Shown in pieces: positions 3,056 to 19,251 of a stretch of 22,139 nt of DNA. Source of the DNA: Archangiaceae bacterium (GTDB lineage Bacteria > Myxococcota > Myxococcia > Myxococcales > Myxococcaceae). The notes below the pieces were generated by a model. That model was not told where the DNA came from, made no database searches, and saw nothing but the letters and a program-made list of their open reading frames with translations. The stretch is from NCBI GenBank assembly GCA_043750125.1, contig JAYVCD010000238.1:1-22139 (forward strand). The letters run 5' to 3'. Every line of letters begins with the position of its first letter. The stretch's first letter is position 1. The position numbers and the translations under genes were made by a program.

Positions 3056-3546
3056 TTCACGCCGACGCGGGCTTCATCGACGTGGGCAGTCTTCACGCTT
3101 CGGCTGAGGACGGAATGTTGCCCCCGCCCTCGCCCACCCCGATTCTGTACGACCGCCGCGCGATGGAAAGGCGGCTGTTGGGCCTGGTCCCCGAGTCGAT
3201 CGAACGCAAGACCGAGCGCCGGGGAGAAGAGCGCCGCAGCTCGCCGCGCGCGCCCCGCCGCTTGTGGGTGGTCGACTCGAACGAAGGAGGCATTCCGAAA
3301 GTGTTCGAAGGAGAAATCGGCCTCGGCGGAGCTTCGTGGAACACCGCGTTTCCTCCGATGTCGGAGTACTTCGAGGTGCGCTTTCGCGTTCCGGACCACG
3401 AAGAAGAAGTGAAGCTGGCGGCGAAGCTGGCCCGCATTGTCCCGATGGGGGACGACAACCGGGTGCAGGTCATCTTCACCGACTTGCCGCTGCGGCATGA
3501 GCTGGCGATGGCGCGGTACCTCGACGACTGCGTCACCGGTCGCTGA
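3052..3546 (+). CDS. PilZ-domain protein (degenerate c-di-GMP motif)
   Basis: ERRSSPR (RxxxR) then EIGLGG at the D/NxSxxG position; ends F.DL....ELAMARYLD; TTG start overlaps pal stop (TTGA); later ATGs at 3115/3162 possible. Confidence 0.7.
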   Translation: MIHADAGFIDVGSLHASAEDGMLPPPSPTPILYDRRAMERRLLGLVPESIERKTERRGEERRSSPRAPRRLWVVDSNEGGIPKVFEGEIGLGGASWNTAFPPMSEYFEVRFRVPDHEEEVKLAAKLARIVPMGDDNRVQVIFTDLPLRHELAMARYLDDCVTGR

Positions 3547-3675
3547 AAGAGCAGCCGGTGAGGGGTTCGCCCCCCGCGAAGTGCCCACTTCAGTTCACAG
3601 GAGGGGTGCGACAAAAGGACTTCAGCAGTCCATGTGTGACCGGCGTTCCGCGCCTGATCTCGCGGACCTGACCGT

Positions 3676-3691
3676 TGGATACCAAAGTGCA
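3676..3691 (+). promoter_or_regulatory. Putative sigma54 (-24/-12) promoter
   Basis: TGGATACCAAAGTGCA: GG (3677-78) and GC (3689-90) separated by exactly 10 nt, about 30 nt upstream of the ATG at 3723 and its AAGGAG RBS. Confidence 0.45.
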
Positions 3692-3722
3692 CAGCGTGCT
3701 GTTCCCTCCAAGGAGCAGCCCT

Positions 3723-4745
3723 ATGCGAACCAAATCTTTACGAAACGAGTCGGTGTGGCCGCTGTTGATTGCGGCGCTGGCGTTCACGGGTTGCTCGGGG
3801 ACTCAGGAGCTTGGGGCTTCTGTTTCTTCCGGAGTTGGGCGGCTCGAAGCCGAGCTGTCGAGCACCAACGCCGTCAATGGAATGCAGATGCAGTCGAGCG
3901 GCCCGGGAGCCAAAGCGAAGGTCAAAGAGATCATCGTCACGGTCGCCAAGGTCACCGCGCACTCGAGCAGCGCTGGCTGGCAGACGCTGTCGAGCACCCA
4001 AATCACGGTCGACATCTTGAAGCTGGCCCAGTTCAGCCAGGCCCTGGGGTTTGCCAACATGCCGGCGGGAAAAGTGACCCAGGTGCGGCTCTACCTTGCT
4101 GAGACCGGGCCGCAGTACGTGACCCGGGACGACGGGGTCAAAATCGATCTGAAGGTTCCCAGCGGAGTGCAATCGGGAATCAAGATCAAAGGGCTCTTCG
4201 ACGTGGCCGGCTGCAACCTGACCAGCCTTCCCCTGCAAATCGACGGGAAGAAGAGCATCTGGGTTCACCCGACCGGGCAGGGAGATTTGTGGATCCTCCG
4301 GCCGGTGATCCGAATGGGCAAGATTCAGTCGTCGAACATTGGCTGCACGCCGAACCCGGGGACGGGCGGTGGAAATGGCGGCACCGGTGGTGGCGGCTTC
4401 GAGGAAGGAAGCGGCACTCCGGGTGGATCGGGCGCCCCTTGCACCACCAACCTCGGTTGCCTCTCTGGGGCGTGCACCAGCGGAATCTGCGCCAAGGGCG
4501 GGCCCGACGCTCCCTGCTCGCTTTCGCGCGACTGCGTTTCCAACGTCTGCGCTGATGGTGCCTGCGCGGTGGGAGGCGCGGGTGGAACCGGGTCGGCATG
4601 CACCCTCAACAGCGACTGCCTCTCGAACGGGTGCGTGAGCGGCAAGTGCGGCGAGGGCGGTCAGGGTCAACCGTGCGTCGTCGCGACCGACTGCGCGATG
4701 GGCTTCACGTGCGAGCTGGGCTCGTGCGCGGCGACTCTCAACTAG
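3723..4745 (+). CDS. DUF4382-like lipoprotein with Gly-rich linker and Cys-rich C-terminal repeats
   Basis: AAGGAG RBS; lipobox AFTGC; VDILKL...GKVTQVRL...LKVPSGVQSGIKIKG...ILRPVI pattern of DUF4382; four C-x5-C-..C..G.C repeats. Confidence 0.75.
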   Translation: MRTKSLRNESVWPLLIAALAFTGCSGTQELGASVSSGVGRLEAELSSTNAVNGMQMQSSGPGAKAKVKEIIVTVAKVTAHSSSAGWQTLSSTQITVDILKLAQFSQALGFANMPAGKVTQVRLYLAETGPQYVTRDDGVKIDLKVPSGVQSGIKIKGLFDVAGCNLTSLPLQIDGKKSIWVHPTGQGDLWILRPVIRMGKIQSSNIGCTPNPGTGGGNGGTGGGGFEEGSGTPGGSGAPCTTNLGCLSGACTSGICAKGGPDAPCSLSRDCVSNVCADGACAVGGAGGTGSACTLNSDCLSNGCVSGKCGEGGQGQPCVVATDCAMGFTCELGSCAATLN

Positions 4746-5289
4746 CGCCGAAGACGTCCCGGTGGACTTGAAGGCTCGAGGTGAGCTCGGGGTGGAAGGT
4801 GGCGCCGGTGATGTTGGCCTGACGCACCAGCACCGGCTCAGCCTCGAGGGTCGCGAGCACTTCGACCGATCTTCCCCGTTCGACGATTCGGGGAGCGCGA
4901 ATGAAGACCAGGGGCAGCGTGCTGCCGTCAGCGGTGCCCTCGAAGCTGTCGAGCTGCCGACCCCAGGCGTTGCGAGCGACCTTCACGTCGAGCAAGCCCA
5001 GGCTGTCTTGCTCGGGGCCGACCACGTTTTTCGCGACCAGAATCAACCCGGAGCAGGTGGCGAGAATCGGCTTTCCGCTGGAGGCGAACCGTTCGATCGC
5101 CGGCCGAAGACCATGGCGGGCGATCAGCGCCAGCTGGGTGGTGCTCTCGCCTCCGGGAAGCACCAGGCCATCGACGGTGGAAAGCTGCGCCGCCTCGCGC
5201 ACTTCGATGACCCGGTGGCCCAGCGCCCTTAAACTGTCGGCATGCAACGCGTAGCCGCCCTGCAGTGCGAGCACGCCGATCGACTTCAT
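4738..5289 (-). CDS. pdxT: PLP synthase glutaminase subunit PdxT
   Basis: IGVLALQG, LPGGESTT, TC nucleophile, RNAWGRQLDSF, FIRAP, FHPEL; ATG overlaps pdxS stop (TGATG). Confidence 0.95.
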   Translation of the reverse strand: MKSIGVLALQGGYALHADSLRALGHRVIEVREAAQLSTVDGLVLPGGESTTQLALIARHGLRPAIERFASSGKPILATCSGLILVAKNVVGPEQDSLGLLDVKVARNAWGRQLDSFEGTADGSTLPLVFIRAPRIVERGRSVEVLATLEAEPVLVRQANITGATFHPELTSSLQVHRDVFGAS

Positions 5290-6179
5290 CACCAGCCTCG
5301 AGTCGACAGCCGCTGCTCGGGAAGCAGCCTGGCCCGCTCGATTCCGCGCATGGCCGCGCCCAGGCCGGTGCTGACCTCAGCGAGCTTCTTGAAGTCCTGC
5401 CAGTAGGTGACGGCGTCGACGATCGCCTTCGCGCGCTTCGCCGGCTCTTCACAAAGGAAGATCCCGCTGCCGACGAACACCGCTTCGGCGCCCAGTGCCA
5501 TGCAGAGCGCGGCATCGGCCGGCGTCGCGATTCCGCCTGCCGCGAAGTTCGGCACGGGAAGCTTTCCGGTCTCGGCGACGGACTTCAGCAGCTCGTAGGG
5601 AGCCCCGAGCGTCTTGGCTTCGGTCATCAGCTGCTCGGGATCGAGGCTCTTCAGTCGACGCAGCTGGGTGCGCAGCGCGCGCAGGTGCCGGACCCCTTCG
5701 GCGATGTCGCCGGTGCCCGCTTCGCCCTTGGTGCGCAGCATCGACGCCCCTTCCGCGATGCGGCGCAGCGCTTCCCCGAGATCCCGACAGCCGCAGACGA
5801 AAGGAATCTTGAACGGATGCTTGTCGATGTGGAACTCGTCATCGGCGGGAGTCAGCACTTCACTCTCATCGATGAAGTCGACCTCGAGCGCCTCGAGGAT
5901 CTGCGCCTCGACGAAGTGGCCGATGCGGCACTTGGCCATCACCGGAATGCTGACGACTTCTTGAATCGCACGGATCATCGAAGGGTCCGAGGCGCGGGCG
6001 ACGCCTCCTTCGGCGCGAATCTGGGCGGGCACCCGCTCGAGCGCCATCACCGCGACCGCTCCGGCGTCTTCGGCCAGGCGGGCCTGCTCGACGTTGACTA
6101 CGTCCATGATCGCTCCGCCGCGCAACATCTGGGCGAGACCAATCTTGGTGACCCCAGTGGACTTCGTTTTAGACAGCAT
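5289..6179 (-). CDS. pdxS: PLP synthase lyase subunit PdxS
   Basis: [74 protein letters not shown]. Confidence 0.97.
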
Positions 6180-7692
6180 CGAGACGACCCTCCTTGCGGG
6201 TTGGTTGTTTGGTGCGCGAGCGGCGTTCCACCGCGGCCCACGCTTTGCCCAGCAGCTTCGCGCCCTCGACCAGCCGGGCTTTCGGTTCGGCGCAGAAGGT
6301 CAGTCGCAGGCCGCGCTGGGGTGATGCGCCGACCGCGTTGAGCGTGCCCGGGCTGACCATCACCCCGTGCTGCAGCGCTTCGACGTAGAGCAATTCCGGG
6401 TCGAGATCGGGGGTGGGCAGCCACAGCTGCAGTCCGGTCTCGGGGTGCCGCCACGTCACGGACGGGGGCAAATATTTTCGCAGCGCGTCTTCGAGCGCAT
6501 CGCGGCGCAGGCGGTATTCGGCGAGCACCCGGGTGAGGTGCGCCCGCAGGTAGCCGCGGCTCAAGAACTCGGCGAGCGCGTGCTGCAGCAGGCCCGAAGT
6601 TCCCAGGTCCATCGAATGTTTCAGCGCCGCGACGTGCTGCTGCAGCGCGGGCGGGCACAGCAGGTAGCCGATGCGCAGCGCGGGAATGAGCTTCTTGCTG
6701 TAGGTGCCGAGGTAGACGACTTCGCCGCTGAGCGAGCGCAGGGCCGGCAGCGGCGGTTTGCCATCGAGGTTGAGATCCGACGCGTAGTCGTCCTCGATCA
6801 GCGGCATTCCGGCTTGATGGGACCAGGCGACCAGCGCCTCGCGTCGAGCCAGCGACACCCGCAGCCCGGTGGGGTTCTGGCAGTTGGGCATCAGGTAGAA
6901 GCCCTTCATTCCGGCGCGGCCATCGCGGGCGAGCGCCTCGAGCGACGGGCCCTCGTCATCGCTGGGCACGGCAATCAGCCGCGCGCCGGCGGCCGAGAGC
7001 AGGTTCAGCGCCCCGTGGTAGGTCGATTCGTCGGTGAGAAAAGGGTCGCCGGGGTTGATCAGCGTGCGCGAGATCAGATCGAGCCCCTGCTGGCTGCCGG
7101 TGGTGATGAGCAGCTCGTCGGGGGAAGCGGGGACTCCCTGGCGAACGAGGTCCTGGGCGATGAGCTCGCGCAGTCGGGGCAGCCCCTCGCGCGGGGTGTA
7201 GCCCAGCGCTTTGGGACCCACGGTGCGCAGCACGTGATCGAGGCACCGGCGCAGCAGCTCGTGCGGCATCAGGTCTTCGGAAGGCTGCATGCGGGACAGC
7301 GCGATCACCTTCGCCCCGGGACTGCCGCTGCGAGAGATGCGGTCCTGGCGTCCCAGCGGCTCGACGGCCACCGCGTTCGAGGTCAACGACGCCCACGGAA
7401 GGCCGGCCCGTCGCATCGGCTGCGGCGCCGCAGCGGTCGGCAGCTGCTCGGCGACGAAGGTCCCGCGCCCGACGGCCGAAGAGACGAAGCCCGCCGACTC
7501 GAGCTCTTCGTAGACCCGAACCACGGTGTTGCGATGGGCCGCCAGCTCATCGGCCAGCGCCCGGGTGGGAGGCAGACGAAACCCCGGCGGCCAGGTGCCG
7601 GTGCGAATGCGGCCGGTGATTTGGTCGAACAGCTGTTGGTACAGCGGTTGTTCGCTTTTGCCTGAGAGAGACAGTCCGGTCGCCTTCGTCAT
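6169..7692 (-). CDS. pdxR: MocR/GabR-family PLP-dependent transcription regulator (PdxR-like)
   Basis: GntR wHTH ([10 protein letters not shown]...RLPPTRALA...[11 protein letters not shown]...GRGTFV) plus aminotransferase-like domain ([24 protein letters not shown]); overlaps pdxS start by 11 nt. Confidence 0.88.
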
Positions 7693-7765
7693 CGGGACTC
7701 CTTGGAAGAGACCCGATCAATGCCACCGGCCTCGAACGGTCGGTAGAGCCAGGCGCTTCAAAGGT

Positions 7766-7808
7766 ACTGTTCCAAGTAGGCCAATTCTAAACAATGAATT
7801 GTACCAAT
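7766..7808 (-). promoter_or_regulatory. Putative pdxRST promoter/operator: extended -10 plus direct repeat
   Basis: Minus strand TGGTACAAT (7806-7798) = TGn-TACAAT; direct repeat TTGGTACA (7807-7800) / TTGGAACA (7775-7768) in an AT-rich island. Confidence 0.45.
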
Positions 7809-7860
7809 CGCCTCGAACGAGACTTGATCGGGTTCATCGCCACCGACGCCTGGAGCTGGG

Positions 7861-9084
7861 TCAGGTCCTCCGGTTCGGGCGAGGGCGGGAATGCTCAGTG
7901 GCCCAGGTGCGGACCTCGACGGCGAGCCGCGCGCGGTCGGCCTCGGGAATTTCGGGCCAGACGGGCAGAAAGACCAGTTGCTGCAGCAGGGCGATCACGT
8001 TCTGGGCAGGGGCCCTCTCATCGGTTGCGCCGACACAGCTCAGGCTGGTCGCGGCCCGCGTCGCATCGAAGCCGCGCCGATGGAGCCAGGCGATCAACGC
8101 CGCGGGGTCGGACACCGTCACCGCGAACAACCAGTGGCTTCGCTCGGGCTGATCGACGCCGACCACCGTCGTGCCCGCGCCGAGCGCCTGGGTCAGCGCT
8201 TCTCCTGCCGCCGCCCGGCGTTCGAACCTCGAGTGGTCGAAGCGGTGGATTCTCCGATGGAGCAACGCCTGCAGCGGGCCGCAGGGGCGGCGACGGATTC
8301 CAGCGAGCAGGGCGGCGGGGTCCGCGAAGCCTCGGGTGACGGCGTTGAGCACTTCCTCGAGCGGTCGTCCGGTAAGGTCGCAGCCTTTTGCGAGCACCGC
8401 GTAGCCCACCGGCCCGCGGGCGCTCGACAGGGCCAGGGTCCGGGCGACCTTCTGGGCGTATTGCCCCACCGGCTGCACCGGCCAGTGGGCCTGGGCGGCC
8501 GCCATCGCTGCACGCCGTTGTGGATTTCGCACCACGGCGATCGCGCCCCCCAGCGCGGTGGCGGTCTTGATCGAACCGAAGCTGAACATCGAGATCTCTG
8601 CCTCGGGGTGTCCTTTCCACCCGGGGCCGGTGAAGCCCTGGGCGAGGTCTTCGATCAACACGAGCCGATGGGCGCGTGCGAGCGCGGCGATCGGCGCGAG
8701 GTCGAGGCGACCTCCCATCAGGTGAGCCACCAGCACCGCCCGGGTTCGTGGGGTGATCGCCGCTTCGACCCAGGCAGGCTCAGGGGCGAGCGTGCGCGGA
8801 TCCAGATCCACCGGAACTGCGAGCAGCCCGTGTTCCTCGAGCACCCGCAACATCCCCGGAATGGTGAGCGCGGTCGTGATCACTTCTGAGCCCCGGGGCA
8901 GCGCCAACGCCGAGAGGTAGAGATCGAACGCTGAGCGCACCGACAGACACACCACCGCCTCCCACTCGGCTTCGAGCGCGCGCCCGGCCTCCAACCCCCG
9001 GTCGCCACGCTCGAGGCAGGCGCGGGCCGCGAAGCCGAGGTCGTCGAAGCCGATGTCGATTCGGTGGCGGGGGTAGAGGGTCAC
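7861..9084 (-). CDS. DegT/DnrJ/EryC1/StrS-family PLP-dependent aminotransferase
   Basis: ITPRTRAVLVAHLMG, IEDLAQ, FSFGSIKTATALGG (PLP Lys); GTG overlaps upstream stop. Confidence 0.85.
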   Translation of the reverse strand: MTLYPRHRIDIGFDDLGFAARACLERGDRGLEAGRALEAEWEAVVCLSVRSAFDLYLSALALPRGSEVITTALTIPGMLRVLEEHGLLAVPVDLDPRTLAPEPAWVEAAITPRTRAVLVAHLMGGRLDLAPIAALARAHRLVLIEDLAQGFTGPGWKGHPEAEISMFSFGSIKTATALGGAIAVVRNPQRRAAMAAAQAHWPVQPVGQYAQKVARTLALSSARGPVGYAVLAKGCDLTGRPLEEVLNAVTRGFADPAALLAGIRRRPCGPLQALLHRRIHRFDHSRFERRAAAGEALTQALGAGTTVVGVDQPERSHWLFAVTVSDPAALIAWLHRRGFDATRAATSLSCVGATDERAPAQNVIALLQQLVFLPVWPEIPEADRARLAVEVRTWATEHSRPRPNRRT

Positions 9085-11392: not shown

Positions 11393-11895
11393 CTACCCTT
11401 TCAGCGCGTCGATGAACCCTTTGGGCAGCGCGGGATCACCGAAGTCGTCGAGCGGATCTCCCCGACCGTTGGTGCACCCCATCGCGGCGCCGATGGTGTT
11501 GAGCACCTTGTTGTTCTTCGTGCCGTGCGCGTCGCACGTAGAGCCCGGTCTTCGAGGCGCCTCCGGCATTGCCGGCGAGAAATCTTGTGGAAGGGTTTCT
11601 GCCGCACTCCATCGATCCAATACTCGGTCACGTCGTTTCCACAGCCCAGCTGCAGAGTGGCGGCCTTCCGCGCCCCACACGCAATCGCCAGGGTCATCAG
11701 GTCCATGTGCCGCTTCACCACGGTCTCGATCGTGTCGTCGTTCTCGAGGTGGTTGGCCAGTGCGCGAAGGTCAGCGACGGACCCATCGGGCAGCGAGCAG
11801 ATCGAGCCGAATGCGATCTGCCTTCGACAGGTCCCTGCGGCTGAGCAAAGTGCGCAATTCGGACCGCACCAAATCGTTCACGCTGCGGCGCTGAG
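11393..11895 (-). pseudogene. DUF1552-family gene remnant (multiple internal deletions/frameshifts)
   Basis: Ordered fragments in different frames: RRSVNDLVRSELRTLLSRRDLSKADRIRLDL / MDLMTLAIACGARKAATLQLG...FHKIS / GNAGGASKTGLYV / NNKVLNTIGAAMG...FGDPALPKG-stop. Confidence 0.75.
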
Positions 11896-12410
11896 CAGCT
11901 CGCGCACCCCTCCTCCGCGCGCCTGTGGCCGTCTCGTCGCTGAGCTCGGCGCGGTAAAGGAAAAAAGGAGACTGCAGGAAGCCGGCGATGCTCACCCGCA
12001 CCCCGGCCACGAAAGGGTCCAGCGCGGGGTAGATCGCCGTTCCCCGCTGGAACAGCGCCCGTCGCGCGGTCACTTCCTCGGGCGTGAGCGGACGGCGAAA
12101 AGCCTTTCCACCCAGAGTCTCGAGGAAGGCTTTTTCCCTCGCCCCGGGCGCCCCCGAGGGGTCGGAGGGAACGAAGCGCTCGAGCCGGGCTGGGTCCGAG
12201 GTCAGCTGCTCGGCGAGTGCTTCAGAGGCGCGCTGGTAGTCGCCCCACAGCATCGGGCTGACCGAGAGCACCGATTGACCGTTGTCGAAGACTTTTCCCC
12301 CAAGGGGATCACGGGCAAACGCGTCCGAGAGGACGGTGCCGCCATCGAGCTCGAAGAGATCTGCGACCGTCAGCGCCCACTGCGCGTGACTGAGCCGGGG
12401 AAAGCGATCA
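11896..12410 (-). pseudogene. DUF1587/DUF1595/DUF1592-family gene remnant
   Basis: Open frame RFPRLSHAQWALTVADLF...GGKVFDN...LGGKAFRRPLTPEE...FLQSPFFLYRAE; no ATG/GTG/TTG start or signal peptide before the first domain; C-terminal DUF1592/1588/1585 parts absent. Confidence 0.75.
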
Positions 12411-12496: not shown

Positions 12497-14002
12497 TCAC
12501 GGAATCGTGAAGTTCGAGACCGGAAGGTTGGTCGTCGAGTCGTACTGCACGACGTGCCAGCCACCGGCGGCGAGCTGTTGAATGGTGACGAACCCGTAAG
12601 GCGTGCTGCCCGAGATCGGCGCTCCGCCCATGCCGATCACCAGCTCGTTGCCGCGGTGGGCGAAGAGGTGGGTGTGACCGACCAGCAACAGGTTGTAGGG
12701 CGAGGCGGCGATCATCGGGTCCATCTCAGCGGTGCACGGCGCGGCGGTGCCAATCGCTTCGTGACGGACGATGATTTTGAACTGCGCCGCTGCGTTCAGC
12801 TCGTTTTGCAGCCACGCCTTCTGAGTCGCGTCCCACGCGTTGCAGGCCACGAGGATGAACCTGGCCAGACCGGTCGAAGTCTGAATCGGCACCGAGTAGT
12901 ACGGCAGCGTCTTCCCCAGCGGCTTCACCAACGCATTGATGAACGCGTCGTAGGTCGGGCGGATGAAGGTGCCGACGCAGTTGCTCAGGGTGGGCGAGAG
13001 GCACTCGTGGTTTCCCATCGAGGCGAACATCACCCCGGGGAACTGTGCGCGAGCGGTGAGGTAGAAGCCGAGCTCGATCGCCGCATCGCCGCTGATCGGG
13101 TTCGAGTATTGGTAATCGCCGGTGCCGACGATGAACTGCGGTCGGGGGTTGAGCGCGGTCAAGTCGGCAAAAATCTTGGTGATGATCGCGGTCGGGTAGT
13201 TGGCCGGAGCGTTGATCGGGCTTGCGGGCCGGGTGTCTCCGACGACCGCGAAGTAGAGAAGATTGACCGAGCCACCGTCAGCGCGCACGAAGCCGCCATC
13301 GACCGGTGCGCCGGCATCTTTGGGCCCCGCGTCCTGGGTTCCGGCATCCGTCGTTCCGGCGTCCGTCGTTCCGGCATCGAGGACTGTGCAGGAAGTGGGA
13401 GGCGTTTTGCAGCTGCACGCCGCGAGATTGGCCTCATCGCACCACCAACCGCCGAAGCAGCCGTTGGTCTGACACGCACTCGAGCCGGGCACGCAGGCGT
13501 GGCAGCACGAGGCGGCCGCTGGGGGCGTCTTCGCACCGCACGGGCCACCGTCGGAAGGCAACTCGCCCGCGTCGGGCGGCTCTTCACAGATGCCCAGCGC
13601 CAGGTTGCAGGTGGTGCCGGTGGTGCAGACGCCACAGCCTCCACCCGCGGTGCAACTGCCGGTGAGCGGCAGACAGACCTTCACTTCGATTCCGGCGAAG
13701 TCGCTGGCAGGGACGCAGCCTTCGGTGCTCGCGCAGTCCGAGGCGACCTGGCAGTTCTTGGCGCAGAAGCTGTCGCCGCTGTACTGGGTGCAGGAGCCAT
13801 TCAAGTCGCACTCTGCGCTGCTCACGCACGGACGGCAGCTCAGGGGGCCCGCGTCGCCGCTCTGGCCCCCACCGGATCCACCAGCCGCGCCGCCGCCTGC
13901 GCCTGCGCCGCCCGCGGATCCACCGCCGCTACCGCCGGGGGGATTATTCGGACAACCGCAGAGCAACGCGACCACTGCCAATCCAAACACTCGACGAATC
14001 AC
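12497..14002 (-). CDS. Cys-rich lipoprotein with C-terminal calcineurin-like metallophosphoesterase domain
   Basis: GTG 14002 overlapping radical SAM stop (GTGA) with GGAG RBS; lipobox LCGC; Cys-rich N-half; motifs VGDTR, GTGDY, MGNHE, VRHE, VGHTH. Confidence 0.85.
   Translation of the reverse strand: MIRRVFGLAVVALLCGCPNNPPGGSGGGSAGGAGAGGGAAGGSGGGQSGDAGPLSCRPCVSSAECDLNGSCTQYSGDSFCAKNCQVASDCASTEGCVPASDFAGIEVKVCLPLTGSCTAGGGCGVCTTGTTCNLALGICEEPPDAGELPSDGGPCGAKTPPAAASCCHACVPGSSACQTNGCFGGWWCDEANLAACSCKTPPTSCTVLDAGTTDAGTTDAGTQDAGPKDAGAPVDGGFVRADGGSVNLLYFAVVGDTRPASPINAPANYPTAIITKIFADLTALNPRPQFIVGTGDYQYSNPISGDAAIELGFYLTARAQFPGVMFASMGNHECLSPTLSNCVGTFIRPTYDAFINALVKPLGKTLPYYSVPIQTSTGLARFILVACNAWDATQKAWLQNELNAAAQFKIIVRHEAIGTAAPCTAEMDPMIAASPYNLLLVGHTHLFAHRGNELVIGMGGAPISGSTPYGFVTIQQLAAGGWHVVQYDSTTNLPVSNFTIP
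13311..13378 (-). repeat. 15-bp coding tandem repeat (DAGxx x ~4.5)
   Basis: ccggcatccgtcgtt-like units encoding DAGTTDAGTTDAGTQDAGPKDAG. Confidence 0.8.
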
Positions 14003-15150
14003 TGGAAACTCCGTTGTTCGGTCCAACGGGCTACCCGTGGACACCCTGGATCAGGGTGCACCTCACCATCATCAGGGCCGGCCGCGCGACACCCCCCCTT
14101 ACAGAGTGAAACGTAAGAGCATCGATCGCAGGGCTGGGGGGGGTTGGCTGCGAAGTCCCGAAAAGGGGCAAACCCGCTCAAGAAGGCCTTTCCCAGAGCA
14201 GGGCCGTCGTGCACGGACGCCTCGGGCTCGCCATAAAAGCCGCACCCGGTGACCGCGCCGTCGGGGCGAATGGCGATCACCTGCTCGCCTCCGACGCAGC
14301 CCACCACCCCGAAAAACTCGGCCAACTTCAAGGAAGGCCGATGCCAGAAGACCATCGGGGCAAACGAGCAATCGAGCCGAACGCGAATCCGATGGCGCAG
14401 GGAAAGCCACACCACCCGGGGCCAGAGCGCCTCGGCCTGCGCGCGCGACAGAACGCTTTCGGGATGGACGGCCGCGCGGCCCACCGGCTTGAGCCGAAGC
14501 AGCTGCACCTGGTTGAGCTCGAGCCGCTTGGCGAGCGCGAGGGTCGGCCCCACCTGCGAAAAATTTTCTCGGGTGACGACGCAGTTGAGCCCGACGTGGG
14601 GAAGCTGGGAGCGCAGCAGCTGCAGCGCGGCGATCGCCTGGTTCCCTCCATCGAAGCCGCGGACCCGGGCATAGGCTGCGGGCGGACCATCGAGGCTGAC
14701 GTTGACCTGGCTGAAGACCTTGCACTTGCGGGCCTGGTCCGCGGTCAGCGACAGACCGGCGGTGGTGAGGCTCGGGGTCACCTTGCGCCAGCGGGCGTGG
14801 GCCGCCAGCTCGAAGATCCACTCGAGGTCCAGCGGCTCTCCGCCTCCGAAGGCAACCCGAAAGACGCCCTTCTGGGCCAGGCGGTCGATCGCGCTCTTCG
14901 CTGCGGCCAGTTCCATCACTTCGCCCCGGGGGGTCGCCCCGACGTAGCAAGTCGAGCAGCCGGCGCCACACCGTCGCGACAGCTGCAGCTGGGCCTCGAT
15001 GGGGGCGGACAAGCGCTGCGGCTCGCCGGTCGACCAGCGGGCGCTTTGTGTGACGCCCAGCAATCGGGCCAGGGGCTGATTGACGGCCACCACCGCGGCG
15101 GGCCGGTCGAGCTCGACGAGGGCGCCAAACCACTCGGGGCGGATCTTCAC
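13999..15150 (-). CDS. Radical SAM/SPASM-domain protein (MftC/PqqE-like) with short RRE-like N-terminus
   Basis: GTG 15150 overlapping upstream stop (GTGA); CGAGCSTC (C61/65/68); FGGGEP; VSLDG; SPASM GC..IRPDG.V..C and CDRC-x5-CKGGC...DPGC. Confidence 0.9.
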   Translation of the reverse strand: MKIRPEWFGALVELDRPAAVVAVNQPLARLLGVTQSARWSTGEPQRLSAPIEAQLQLSRRCGAGCSTCYVGATPRGEVMELAAAKSAIDRLAQKGVFRVAFGGGEPLDLEWIFELAAHARWRKVTPSLTTAGLSLTADQARKCKVFSQVNVSLDGPPAAYARVRGFDGGNQAIAALQLLRSQLPHVGLNCVVTRENFSQVGPTLALAKRLELNQVQLLRLKPVGRAAVHPESVLSRAQAEALWPRVVWLSLRHRIRVRLDCSFAPMVFWHRPSLKLAEFFGVVGCVGGEQVIAIRPDGAVTGCGFYGEPEASVHDGPALGKAFLSGFAPFRDFAANPPQPCDRCSYVSLCKGGCRAAGPDDGEVHPDPGCPRVARWTEQRSFQ

Positions 15151-15350
15151 TTCTTGTCTTCCGGGCGCGGGGGCGGCTCTTCGCCCACCCGGTCTGGCTT
15201 CTTCCCGCGCAGCAACGCCGAAATCGCCAACGAGGCGATCACCAGGCCGCCGCCGCCCAGCAGCAGCCAGGTCACTTCGACCCCCAGCCCTCCCGAGGCG
15301 CTGCCCACGCCCGAGCGCACCGACAACACTTTGGGATTCTGCTTTTTCAT
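15147..15350 (-). CDS. 67-aa single-TM peptide, candidate radical SAM substrate/precursor
   Basis: ATG 15350 (ATGA overlap, GAGGGG RBS); MKKQNPKVLSVRSGVGSASGGLGVEVTWLLLGGGGLVIASLAISALLRGKKPDRVGEEPPPRPEDKK; stop overlaps radical SAM start. Confidence 0.7.
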   Translation of the reverse strand: MKKQNPKVLSVRSGVGSASGGLGVEVTWLLLGGGGLVIASLAISALLRGKKPDRVGEEPPPRPEDKK

Positions 15351-16132
15351 TCGAACCCCTCGAGCAGCGATTGCCACAGCGGCCGCCACAGCCCCGAGCC
15401 CGCCAGCACCACGTCGAGCCACAGCAGTCCCTGCAACCCACTCTTGAACGCCTCGAGCACCCGCGCCTTTCCCTGGGGGGGATGCGCGCGCAGGTAGGCT
15501 CCGTTGAGCCAGGCGAGGACGAGCGCTCCGAGCACCAGCGCGGACAGGGCGCGGCCCGCGTCGGGGCCCTGGGTGAAGGCCATCGCGCCAAGCAGCAGCA
15601 GCAACGGAGCGAGCACGAGAACTTCGGCCGGCACCGGAACCAGCGCCCGTCGAACAGTGAACAGCCGAGCGGCGAGCCAGAGCCCGAGCAGGCAGCCGAT
15701 CGCGACGGCCTGCCACCAGACTTGCTGGGCGACCTTCACTTCGATCAGCGCCTGGGTGCCGGTGAACTGCCACAGCTCGTTCGGCGAGCGGACCAGGCGA
15801 CCAAAATCTTCAGCCGCAGCCTGGAAGTGACGAAGCTCGAACTCGATTGCCGCCAGCGTCGACAGCGCCTGCATCGCGGCTTCATCGTGGCCTTCGTCCG
15901 AAATCACCGCCTCGAGGACGGGGCGCGCGTCGCCCGGCTGCCCGTCGGAATACAACAGGCGCGCGCACCACACCCGCCCGGTGCGCGCCTGCGGATCGTC
16001 TTTGTGGGCCGCGGCCCAGGCCAACATCGAGGCGCAGGACTCGAGGTGATTGTGAGTGTTGACCCCCGCGACGATTGCCTCGAAATCGGGAGGCGACGCG
16101 AGGGCCACCAGCAGCAGAAGGCTAGCGACCAT
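15347..16132 (-). CDS. Signal peptide + TPR-like helical domain + C-terminal multi-TM protein
   Basis: MVASLLLLVALA signal; TPR-like ARLLYSDGQPGDARPVLE and ALSTLAAIEFELRHFQAAAEDFGRL; about 4 hydrophobic segments after. Confidence 0.65.
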   Translation of the reverse strand: MVASLLLLVALASPPDFEAIVAGVNTHNHLESCASMLAWAAAHKDDPQARTGRVWCARLLYSDGQPGDARPVLEAVISDEGHDEAAMQALSTLAAIEFELRHFQAAAEDFGRLVRSPNELWQFTGTQALIEVKVAQQVWWQAVAIGCLLGLWLAARLFTVRRALVPVPAEVLVLAPLLLLLGAMAFTQGPDAGRALSALVLGALVLAWLNGAYLRAHPPQGKARVLEAFKSGLQGLLWLDVVLAGSGLWRPLWQSLLEGFE

Positions 16133-16499
16133 CGACGATTTCGGGAGCAATCGTGAGGACTGGAATCCGACCCCACAAAGCGAAAGCGTAGTAGCCGACG
16201 ACGAAGCACAGCAGCAGCACGCACCAGCCCACCGAAAGCCAGACTTGAGAATCGGGCACGTCGCGCTTGCGGACGACGCGGGAGGCCAGCCCGCCCACCC
16301 CCAGGCCCACCGCCGCAGCGAAGATCAGCTGTCCGAACATGCACATCGCCAGTCCCGGCGGGTGCGCGGTGAAGACGAAGCGACGCTCGATCGGCAGGTA
16401 CCAAACCACCGGTATCGCGAACGCGCTGCTGCTGAGCCACGCGATCCAGAACGCGACCACCCCGACGGCCCAGGAAAACGCTGCGCGGGTCTCGGTCAA
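16122..16499 (-). CDS. Small 3-TM hypothetical membrane protein
   Basis: TTG 16499 overlapping upstream stop (TTGA); three hydrophobic segments; WYLP...F.F...PPGLAM..FG loop. Confidence 0.65.
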   Translation of the reverse strand: MTETRAAFSWAVGVVAFWIAWLSSSAFAIPVVWYLPIERRFVFTAHPPGLAMCMFGQLIFAAAVGLGVGGLASRVVRKRDVPDSQVWLSVGWCVLLLCFVVGYYAFALWGRIPVLTIAPEIVDGR

Positions 16500-16942
16500 A
16501 CGCCCCGCACGCTGGTGATGATCAACCCCGAGACGGCCGCCCACGCCACGATCGCCCAGAGCAAAGCGGCGAAGAGATCCGTCACCGGACGGGCCTTCGG
16601 GCCTCGCCGCGCCAGAAAGAAGAGGGCAATCGCCATCGGCAGGCCCAGCGAGACCAGGTGCTCTTTGAAGTCGAACAGGTTCGAGGCCCACGGTTGAACG
16701 GAGTCCAGGTACCGCGCCCGCACTTCGACGCGAAAGTGGGGATACATCAACAGCCCGAGGATGAACGCCCCACCGAACAAGGGAGCCAGCAGTCTCATGT
16801 ACGTCTGCTCCAGCCTCTCGCGCGGCCGACCGCGCCAGCGCATCGCCTTGACCACCAGCAGGTGGGTCGTCACTCCGAGCAGGGCCATCGCGGTCAGCGC
16901 ATGCAACACCAGCAGTGGCTTGGCGGCCTGCGCGAAGATCAT
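16496..16942 (-). CDS. 4-TM membrane protein with His residues (H14, H27, H69, H95)
   Basis: ATG 16942; LHALTAMALLGVTTH, YPHFRVEVR, LFDFKEH motifs; four hydrophobic segments. Confidence 0.7.
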   Translation of the reverse strand: MIFAQAAKPLLVLHALTAMALLGVTTHLLVVKAMRWRGRPRERLEQTYMRLLAPLFGGAFILGLLMYPHFRVEVRARYLDSVQPWASNLFDFKEHLVSLGLPMAIALFFLARRGPKARPVTDLFAALLWAIVAWAAVSGLIITSVRGV

Positions 16943-17006
16943 CGGTTCCAAGGCGGCGGAAGCTACACCCGCGGGCGGGCGGAAGGCTGCAGTCAGGTTC
17001 TCTTCT

Positions 17007-17405
17007 TCAGTGCTGAATCTTCTCGCTGGGCGAAAGGGAGCCGACCTTGTGAATCTGCAGCAGCCCGTCGTCACGAACCAGGGCGGCCAGGGCCTCGAAG
17101 CTGTGAGCCTGCCAGCGAAGCGAGCCATCGTAATAGAGAGCCAGCTTCACTTTTCGGGTCCGGGCCTCTTCGATGAAGCGCAGCAGCGCGGCGATGGTGG
17201 AAGAATTGAAGTGCGTGAGCTGCTCGAAGTGCATCTCGAGGGTCTGCGATTTGGTCGAGGCTTCGGCCAGCGCGAGCCCGAAAAAGGACCTCACCCCCTT
17301 GTCCGGATCGCGGCTGTTGCTCATGCCTTTCCAGATCAGCGCCAGACGGTCGGGGGCGGGCTCATCGACATCGATCGTCAAGTCGCCCAGCACAAGTCCT
17401 TGCAT
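17007..17405 (-). CDS. SiaC/DUF1987-like (STAS-fold) regulatory protein
   Basis: ATG 17405; IWKGMSNSRDP, MHFEQLTHFNSSTI, LYYD...WQ pattern resembling SiaC (L.YFNTSS). Confidence 0.55.
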   Translation of the reverse strand: MQGLVLGDLTIDVDEPAPDRLALIWKGMSNSRDPDKGVRSFFGLALAEASTKSQTLEMHFEQLTHFNSSTIAALLRFIEEARTRKVKLALYYDGSLRWQAHSFEALAALVRDDGLLQIHKVGSLSPSEKIQH

Positions 17406-17476: not shown

Positions 17477-17986
17477 TCAGCGAGCAGCCGGTCGAGGCTC
17501 GCGGGCGAGCTCTTTGACCAACGCGTCCAATTTTTCCGTGCCTTCGGCGAGTACCGAAGCAAAGCCAATCTTCTTGGCAGCGTCCCGGTCGGCGTAGGAC
17601 TTGAAGCGGCTGACGAGCTTCCAATGGGTCTGGTTCCCGTCGGCCTCGAGCGTCACGGTCATCACGTTGTCGCTGGGGTCGGCGACGGTGGACTTCGCAC
17701 TCTCGGCCTTTTTCCAGATCAGCTTCTCGGGCTTCACCACGTCGACGAAGACGAACTCCATCGCGTGCTCGACGCCGTCCGGAGTGCGCATCGTGTGGCG
17801 CCACCGACCGCCCGGCCGAACGTCCATCTCGCACACCGGATTCTCAAACCCTTTGCCCCCGTACCATTTGACGACATGCCTGGGCTCGGTGAGCGCTTCC
17901 CAGAGAATGTCGCGCGGGGCATCGAACGTGCGGCGCATCACGATCACTGCCGAGTGGGTCGAATTCGAGTTGATGTCGATCTTCAT
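17477..17986 (-). CDS. SRPBCC (AHSA1/START-like) domain protein
   Basis: RTFDAPRDILWEALTEP, EMDVRPGGRWRHTMRTPDG, VVKPEKL. Confidence 0.9.
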   Translation of the reverse strand: MKIDINSNSTHSAVIVMRRTFDAPRDILWEALTEPRHVVKWYGGKGFENPVCEMDVRPGGRWRHTMRTPDGVEHAMEFVFVDVVKPEKLIWKKAESAKSTVADPSDNVMTVTLEADGNQTHWKLVSRFKSYADRDAAKKIGFASVLAEGTEKLDALVKELAREPRPAAR

Positions 17987-17996
17987 GGGGCTTTTT

Positions 17997-19251
<1,255 letters not shown>

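Follow-up and report, generated by a model that had tools for sequence, protein, structure and literature searches.

Radical S-adenosylmethionine (SAM) enzymes with a SPASM domain that act on peptides are a main source of new protein chemistry, and to our knowledge almost every studied case leads to an exported natural product or a soluble cofactor. In the solved radical SAM maturases of peptides that are made on ribosomes and altered post-translationally (RiPPs), the leader peptide docks by adding as a strand to a recognition element. The products of PqqE and MftC serve the cell's own use and are not antibiotics, and anSME, another SPASM enzyme, acts on Ser or Cys of a protein rather than on a natural-product precursor. 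Here we examine a six-gene locus (g1 to g6) on a 22,139-nucleotide stretch of an Archangiaceae bacterium (contig JAYVCD010000238.1; the whole of this stretch is called the window), in which the gene for a 67-residue protein (g4) overlaps the gene for a radical SAM/SPASM enzyme (g5). We propose that the core of the locus is the two-gene module of g4 and g5, and that the enzyme binds g4 and most likely modifies it, a reading to which we give a probability of roughly 0.55.

A full-text literature search at the level of abstracts and listings returned no description of such a system; the family might be listed in the supplementary tables of large radical SAM and RiPP surveys. A full scan of 1.84 billion representative proteins yielded 107 relatives of g5 at E ≤ 1e-30. 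The nearest relative, from a metagenome-assembled genome (MAG) labelled Archangiaceae, is 74% identical, and relatives are numerous at about 40-55% identity, with Myxococcota MAGs as their named sources. For a survey of gene neighbourhoods we used the best 80 of 332 relatives of g5 on genome contigs, each with up to 8 kb of flank per side. The source labels of these 80 loci, which are cited below by number (L001 and so on), are Myxococcota or delta-proteobacterial MAGs with about seven exceptions. Genes were called, their products were clustered by BLASTP, and hidden Markov models (HMMs) of the resulting families were searched against six-frame open reading frames (ORFs). The gene caller relies on codon usage and was trained on long ORFs of related loci; its start positions are imprecise.

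The g4-g5 pair

The product of g5 scores 49.8 bits against the Pfam model Radical_SAM (PF04055, cut-off 29.5) and 31.9 bits against the SPASM model TIGR04085 (cut-off 27), the latter matching residues 285-358. Besides the radical SAM cluster motif, an alignment of 24 homologues shows Cys261, 285, 303, 341, 344, 350, 354 and 370 to be invariant, with Cys261 just upstream of the SPASM region. By these sequence features g5 is a true radical SAM/SPASM enzyme, and auxiliary clusters are predicted from its cysteine set. It reached the cut-off of no NCBIfam equivalog or curated subfamily, all scores being far below. The best equivalog, MftC (TIGR03962), gave 92 bits against a cut-off of 265 and PqqE (TIGR02109) 51.7 against 381.35, and the tetrapyrrole models gave 73.1 against 515 (NirJ), 71.8 against 500 (AhbD) and 64.1 against 650 (AhbC). 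The initial annotation of the locus, made from the sequence and its ORFs without database searches, had named grouping with a characterised small-molecule family as evidence against its reading, and the enzyme joins no such family. That annotation had also claimed that pqq, mft and peptidase or exporter genes were missing. No pqq gene was found in the window, no mft gene (mftA, B, D, E or F) in the window or among the conserved neighbours scanned, and no peptidase or ATP-binding cassette (ABC) exporter, as a RiPP cluster would be expected to have, in the window or among the recurrent neighbour families scanned.

The AlphaFold2 (AF2) model of g5 has a predicted local distance difference test score (pLDDT) of 86.9, and its best Foldseek matches were SkfB (2.7e-14), SuiB (8.4e-14), anSME (3e-13) and CteB (5.4e-13), with ChlB also found; identity to the RiPP maturases among these is only 14-20%. 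In a profile search of the PDB, PqqE came first (6.6e-17, residues 45-375), and SkfB, CteB and anSME were again recovered. Because the nearest solved relatives by fold and by profile modify peptides or proteins, we favour a protein-modifying role for g5. In the model the barrel is preceded by a mini-domain at the N-terminus, in which DSSP assigns three strands (residues 3-6, 9-14 and 19-24) and two short helices (25-30 and 37-40). Glu6, Phe8, Gly9, Pro17, Gly32 and Trp39 of this mini-domain are invariant in the 24-homologue alignment.

The product of g4 starts with a basic segment and has, besides its conserved motif, a single hydrophobic helix of 25 residues (24-48) and a variable charged tail. 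A profile built from 34 g4 sequences matched at least 3551 clusters at E ≤ 0.001, and the family is present across the Myxococcota lineages sampled, including the cultured species Haliangium ochraceum. None of these clusters carries a Pfam domain, and every named one is called 'hypothetical'. Pfam and NCBIfam scans of g4 and typical family members returned no family, and an Atlas look-up of a typical g4 gave no match above 0.77. Conservation was assessed in 154 sequences (the 34 aligned and the 120 best hits), a sample that leans to the consensus because 120 of the 154 are best hits. Leu9, Gly14 and Ser19 are invariant in all 154, and around Ser19 the NPN and SS positions are retained by 152. 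In contrast to the near-invariant motif, the C-terminal tail varies.

Linkage of g4 to the enzyme gene was counted in the 75 of 80 loci in which the flank upstream of the enzyme gene spans at least 400 nt, and 'directly upstream' was taken to mean on the same strand and within 300 nt. g4 is present in 64 of these 75 loci and directly upstream in 55, so that most enzymes adjoin a small gene in the way expected of a RiPP precursor. Across all 80 loci, the g4 HMM matched in 66. Among 52 called copies of g4, 37 lie no more than 3 nt from the enzyme gene call, consistent with a 4-nt overlap. In a quick tree of the enzymes the association spans the three larger clades, and the pairing is retained to about 40% enzyme identity; no g4 was seen in the basal rows L041, L070 and L038/L039/L043. 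The initial annotation had made conserved association of the radical SAM homologues with the small gene and the membrane genes the check on its reading. Both associations were found, the second in fewer loci (g1 in 33/80, g2 in 32/80 and g3 in 36/80).

We modelled the enzyme (24-row alignment) and g4 (34-row alignment) as a complex that also included SAM and three 4Fe-4S clusters. The interaction prediction score from aligned errors (ipSAE) was 0.87, 0.88 and 0.88 in three runs, and the best of three controls scored 0.00. Of solved complexes, 58 of 80 reach the tool's mark, as do 2 of 110 mismatched pairs, counts that are only a rough guide here because we used our own alignments and the ligands rode along. 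The three runs share at least 83% of contacts, and the pLDDT of the partner is at least 67. In the lowest-error contacts, residues 6-11 of g4 pair with residues 20-27 of the enzyme, in the third strand and first helix of the mini-domain. In the model this strand pairing is of the kind seen with recognition elements, on a domain of only three strands and two short helices. Residues 12-30 of g4 touch barrel-interior residues 48-54, 92-100, 123-129, 147-150, 189, 216 and 246-286. The complex model therefore supports binding of g4 by g5, as a prediction. It also strengthens one half of the initial annotation, which had proposed a candidate RiPP or protein-modification system: protein modification gains from the interface score (0.88 against 0.00), while a classical RiPP is now unlikely, for reasons given below.

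Possible roles of g4

The best-supported interpretation is that g4 and g5 are a substrate-enzyme pair, or at least an obligate pair. In the course that we propose, the basic segment at the N-terminus of g4 (consensus RGR-I/V-L) would join the three-strand mini-domain of the presumably cytoplasmic enzyme as an extra strand, in the manner of RiPP leader peptides on their recognition elements. Docking would feed the hydrophilic motif with Ser19 into the barrel, above SAM and the iron-sulfur clusters. There the 5'-deoxyadenosyl radical would abstract a hydrogen from a residue of the motif, with Ser19 as a first guess, and the auxiliary SPASM clusters would complete an oxidation, an epimerisation or a cross-link. 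The product would be neither cut out nor exported and would stay anchored by its hydrophobic helix. Modified g4 may then work with g1 (a four-helix, His-bearing protein) and g2, and/or with g3 (a protein with tetratricopeptide repeat (TPR)-like and membrane regions). In the window's clade, a periplasmic purple-acid-phosphatase-like lipoprotein, g6, may share the envelope function. If the enzyme does modify g4, the g4 family would be a new family of substrates, and the modification would probably be a new housekeeping one at the membrane. The single invariant serine and a cultured host, H. ochraceum, make modification of g4 testable.

Several observations weigh against this reading. The data show the gene structure, the family assignments, the linkage of the genes and an interface supported by the model; that g4 is the substrate and which of its residues is modified are inferred, and the chemistry is a guess. 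Ser19 is absent from the listed contact residues, although the tool treats unnamed residues simply as uncertain. The N-terminal domain of g5 has no Pfam PqqD or RiPP recognition element match at E ≤ 0.1 and is shorter than the canonical element. Because the predicted geometry is that of the solved radical SAM maturases, the success of the complex model may owe something to likeness to the SuiB-SuiA, CteB-CteA and ChlB-ChlA complexes. Both flanks of the g4 helix are basic, which makes a cytoplasmic placing of its N-terminus tentative. The near-invariance of the whole motif, judged from the alignment, would suit a structural subunit as well as a substrate. The exceptions at the NPN and SS positions are the g4 of the window itself and its closest relative (L001, 6796-7005), both of which retain Ser19. 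Finally, g4 was not found within 8 kb in 11 loci with adequate upstream flank, and in several Polyangia loci a gene cassette separates the two genes or may place g4 outside the flank.

Two of these points are accompanied by further detail. Replacement of the NPN and SS residues in the clade of the window and L001 could reflect either relaxed constraint or changed specificity. As for the displaced copies, several genes intervene between g4 and the enzyme gene in L057 and L059. In L059, four reverse-strand genes occupy about 3100-7900 between the two, and L046, L056 and L066 carry these four genes upstream of the enzyme gene; by eye, two of them resemble extracytoplasmic function (ECF) sigma factors and one an anti-sigma factor. 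Since the same gene order runs off the 8-kb flank in L046 and L056, their g4 may lie beyond the sampled stretch.

The main rival is that g4 is a membrane adaptor that tethers the enzyme, the real substrate being a lipid, a quinone, a tetrapyrrole or a protein such as g1, g2 or g3. We consider this possible. g4 has a hydrophobic helix, its motif is near-invariant as in structural subunits, and no peptidase or exporter was found in the window or among the conserved neighbours scanned, yet in the model the motif of g4 runs into the interior of the barrel, which goes beyond surface docking. Membrane proteins are co-encoded with the enzyme, and the conserved His residues of g1 lie in a four-helix bundle that could hold a cofactor, but g1 and g2 are missing from the loci of about half the family. 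Likewise, the sub-threshold matches of g5 to the tetrapyrrole enzymes NirJ (73 bits) and AhbD (72 bits) are far under the cut-offs of 515 and 500, and its nearest solved relatives are peptide- or protein-modifying enzymes.

A bolder form of the modification hypothesis makes g4 the precursor of a membrane-anchored, protein-derived cofactor or small prosthetic subunit, with the serine motif made reactive or redox-active and with g4 a fixed part of an as yet unrecognised Myxococcota envelope module of g1, g2 and g3. We regard this as rather doubtful. If it were true, it would represent a new class of peptide-derived cofactor, one that is never released from its membrane helix.

A classical RiPP cluster, in which the g4 precursor would be modified, cleaved from its leader and exported as a bioactive peptide, is improbable. 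A small gene does adjoin a SPASM radical SAM enzyme with a fold akin to the sactipeptide and streptide maturases, and leader-like docking is predicted. However, g4 bears a 25-residue hydrophobic helix, its putative core is near-invariant among 154 sequences where RiPP cores usually vary, and no peptidase or ABC exporter was found in the window or among the conserved neighbours scanned. The locus also sits among housekeeping genes with conserved synteny. That the six genes share a transcript and no function, in an arrangement kept by descent in close relatives only, is hardly credible: the full partner set does occur in only 9/80 loci, of which a single one falls outside the enzyme clade closest to the window, and short overlaps are common (137/561 other junctions), but g4 and g5 stay paired to about 40% enzyme identity and across the three larger clades, g1/g2 and g3 recur in different orders, upstream in window-like loci and downstream in others, and g6 is kept despite changes of position and strand and appears in the distant loci L052, L060 and L078.

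Accessory genes, operon structure and the surrounding window

Around the g4-g5 core, the other four genes are variable partners. By combination of partners, g3 with g4 is found in 23/80 loci, g1 and g2 with g4 in 20/80, no partner in 12/80, all five in 9/80, g4 only in 8/80 and other combinations in 8/80. Gene order varies as well, being g1-g2-g3-g4-enzyme in window-like loci, g4-enzyme-g1-g2 in a second group and g3-g4-enzyme in a third; g1 accompanies g2 in all but one of the g2-bearing loci. The initial annotation had treated the six genes as one functional unit. This view stands for the g4/g5 core, but the set of six is not fixed, and g1/g2 and g3 are alternative or combined accessories. 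The link of g6 is the weakest among the partners because it is found in 14/80 loci, at varying positions and in varying orientations.

In the AF2 model (pLDDT 95.4), the membrane protein g1 is a four-helix bundle of four long helices. His14, Tyr67, Pro68, Arg71, Arg75, Phe90, Asp91, Lys93 and Glu94 are invariant in a 32-sequence alignment and include the motif YP-x-x-R ... FD-x-KE, and His27 is conserved in at least 90%. Neither the window copy nor typical members belong to a Pfam or NCBIfam family. A fold search against the PDB gave no match at E ≤ 0.001, returning only generic helical bundles and oxidase subunits. We considered g1 as a DUF2269 or cytochrome bd subunit II protein, since an Atlas feature score of 0.93 to a DUF2269-named cluster provided a lead, and rejected this: DUF2269 matched 1/32 members (E 0.0082), Cyt_bd_oxida_II matched 3/32, and neither matched the window copy.

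The g2 protein has three hydrophobic stretches (four overlapping windows above threshold) and, in the window copy and its homologues, no family above any cut-off; one homologue has a sub-threshold FtsX match. g3 begins with a signal-like N-terminus and continues with a TPR-like region; its C-terminal part has three hydrophobic stretches. All TPR matches of the window copy fall below the Pfam cut-offs (best TPR_14, 17.8 against 23.5), and the homologue in L058 passes TPR_6, TPR_16 and TPR_14. YbgF/CpoB-like matches of a g3 homologue are below cut-off.

g6, a predicted lipoprotein, combines a lipobox-like LLCGC, a Gly-rich linker, a Cys-rich region with 30 Cys, DAG repeats and a C-terminal phosphoesterase domain. 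Against Metallophos (PF00149) the window copy scores 20.9, just under the cut-off of 21.5, and the homologue in L002 scores 44.4. The domain motifs GDTR, GD, GNHE, H and HxH are invariant in 12/12 sequences. When the domain profile was searched against the PDB, only purple acid phosphatases were significant (7e-8 to 7e-6); a single-sequence search with g6 returned low-complexity noise only. Within the window's clade g6 shifts position and strand, and it recurs in three distant loci (L052, L060 and L078). In L002 (10044-11537) and L007 (10007-11467), the homologous phosphoesterase carries an N-terminal CBM96/DNRLRE module in place of the Cys-rich region and is convergent to the operon.

The six minus-strand ORFs of the initial annotation were borne out by ORF reading and by the codon-usage gene calls, which recovered all six with positive coding scores (21.7 for g4), and the five junctions it described are exact in position (Table 1). 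Its descriptions of the individual products were likewise upheld by models, hydrophobicity, Pfam/NCBIfam and homologue scans. The start of g2 is TTG; an in-frame GTG at 16460 is an alternative that would abolish the g1/g2 overlap. The caller preferred TTG at 16951 for g1 and TTG at 16150 for g3, and placed the start of g6 further downstream, calling this gene as 12497-13825. Five consecutive overlaps make a tight operon, yet such a run is not exceptional alone because short overlaps are common in these genomes: with imprecise starts, overlaps of 1-12 nt occur at 137/561 other same-strand junctions, compared to 98/164 junctions between the six families. A scan for promoters and terminators found 0 promoters and 1 terminator-like site, within a coding region, against 5.4 expected, and an Rfam scan gave 0 matches.

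Table 1. Positions of the genes, gene junctions and protein features of the locus in the window.
Feature	Position	Strand	Description
g1	16496-16942	-	148 aa (amino acids), ORF
g2	16122-16499	-	125 aa, ORF
g3	15347-16132	-	261 aa, ORF
g4	15147-15350	-	67 aa, ORF
g5	13999-15150	-	383 aa, ORF
g6	12497-14002	-	501 aa, ORF
g1/g2 junction	16496-16499	-	TTGA
g2/g3 junction	16122-16132	-	11-nt overlap
g3/g4 junction	15347-15350	-	ATGA
g4/g5 junction	15147-15150	-	GTGA
g5/g6 junction	13999-14002	-	GTGA
g4 residues 6-11, leader-like strand	15318..15335	-	PKVLSV (family consensus RGR[IV]L); Leu9 invariant; from the complex model
g4 conserved motif, residues 14-27	15270..15311	-	consensus G-x-NPNSSSLGVDVT; window reads GVGSASGGLGVEVT
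g4 Ser19 codon	15294-15296	-	invariant serine, just before the hydrophobic helix
g5 N-terminal mini-domain, residues 1-45	15016..15150	-	precedes the barrel; three strands and two short helices (AF2 model)
g5 radical SAM cluster motif CX3CX2C	14947..14970	-	Cys61, Cys65, Cys68; invariant in 24/24 aligned homologues
g5 SPASM region, residues 285-370	14041..14298	-	CX2CX5CX3C at Cys341, 344, 350, 354
g6 C-terminal purple-acid-phosphatase-like metallophosphoesterase domain	about 12497-13273	-	profile against PDB

Other recurrent neighbours of the enzyme gene are housekeeping genes, namely NAD synthase, a kinase/pyrophosphorylase, AstA and 3-hydroxyacyl-CoA dehydrogenase. In one set of related loci (L011, L012, L015, L017-L019, L022, L023, L025-L027, L030, L031, L033, L034 and L037), a predicted lipoprotein of about 350-400 aa, rich in Trp, Pro and Gly, is encoded directly upstream of g4. 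Single-linkage clustering had labelled this gene a second radical SAM gene. We discarded the label because low-complexity matches had pulled the lipoprotein into the family; in the tree it is set apart on a branch of length 4.1. Loci in the range L011-L037 have two more conserved, family-less genes after g1-g2, one for a lipoprotein-like protein of about 140 aa (18 loci) and one for a protein of about 160 aa (13 loci), and these may be replacements for g3 or g6. The genes upstream of g1 in the window, 17007-17405 and 17477-17986 (AHSA1/SRPBCC), were considered as partners and rejected: each has a family size of 1 and no tblastn match in the 80 loci.

The G+C content of the window is 62-71%. 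On the plus strand, two separate ORFs (18120-18809 and 18907-19251) are limited to the C-terminal portion of a trypsin-like protease domain plus a PDZ domain and appear to be fragments of a disrupted HtrA/DegP-type protease; the first shares part of its length with a minus-strand ORF (17997-18449). Just downstream of the operon, a 166-aa minus-strand ORF (11771-12271) joins a DUF1595 (PSD5) match to a DUF1552 fragment. These domains are normally on separate, larger proteins, and the ORF is probably a gene remnant. The minus-strand genes at 4738-7692, pdxT-like (SNO), pdxS-like (SOR_SNZ) and a GntR-aminotransferase fusion regulator, are an ordinary vitamin B6 cluster with overlaps of 4 nt and 11 nt. 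Since this cluster has them too, overlapping junctions are usual in this genome.

Comparison with known systems

As far as its sequences indicate, the g4-g5 system works like the SPASM maturases that bear a recognition element, yet it is a member of no curated family tested. Among its accessories, g6 resembles the purple acid phosphatases in a weak domain profile match and in invariant metal-binding motifs. It differs in adding a lipoprotein signal and a 30-Cys region, and its relatives swap N-terminal modules.

anSME is like g5 in fold (3e-13, TM-scores 0.67 to 0.70). The invariant Ser19 of g4 invites an analogy with its action, in which oxidation of Ser19 would be a guess. Among the scanned genes of the window there was no sulfatase gene, and by eye g4 contains nothing like what we take to be the sulfatase motif. 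An N-terminal docking domain like that predicted for g5 is not known in anSME.

The SuiB-SuiA, CteB-CteA, SkfB and ChlB-ChlA systems share with g5 the radical SAM core, the full SPASM Cys set and the fold. As in maturases of the SuiB/CteB type, an N-terminal strand of g4 is predicted to add to the enzyme and the downstream motif to enter the barrel. The differences lie on both sides of the pair. The predicted docking domain of g5 is only about 45 residues long and lacks a PqqD match. In most clades g4 is free of Cys, and it is near-invariant and bears a membrane helix. Membrane-protein accessories take the place of a peptidase or exporter.

PqqE and MftC are the best relatives of g5 at the level of sequence, and the MftC match is nearly full length. 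However, g5 scores far under the cut-offs of both, and the window has no pqq or mft accessory genes. The putative recognition domain of g5 is fused to the enzyme, whereas PqqE and MftC use a separate PqqD or MftB, and its predicted partner, g4, is membrane-anchored.

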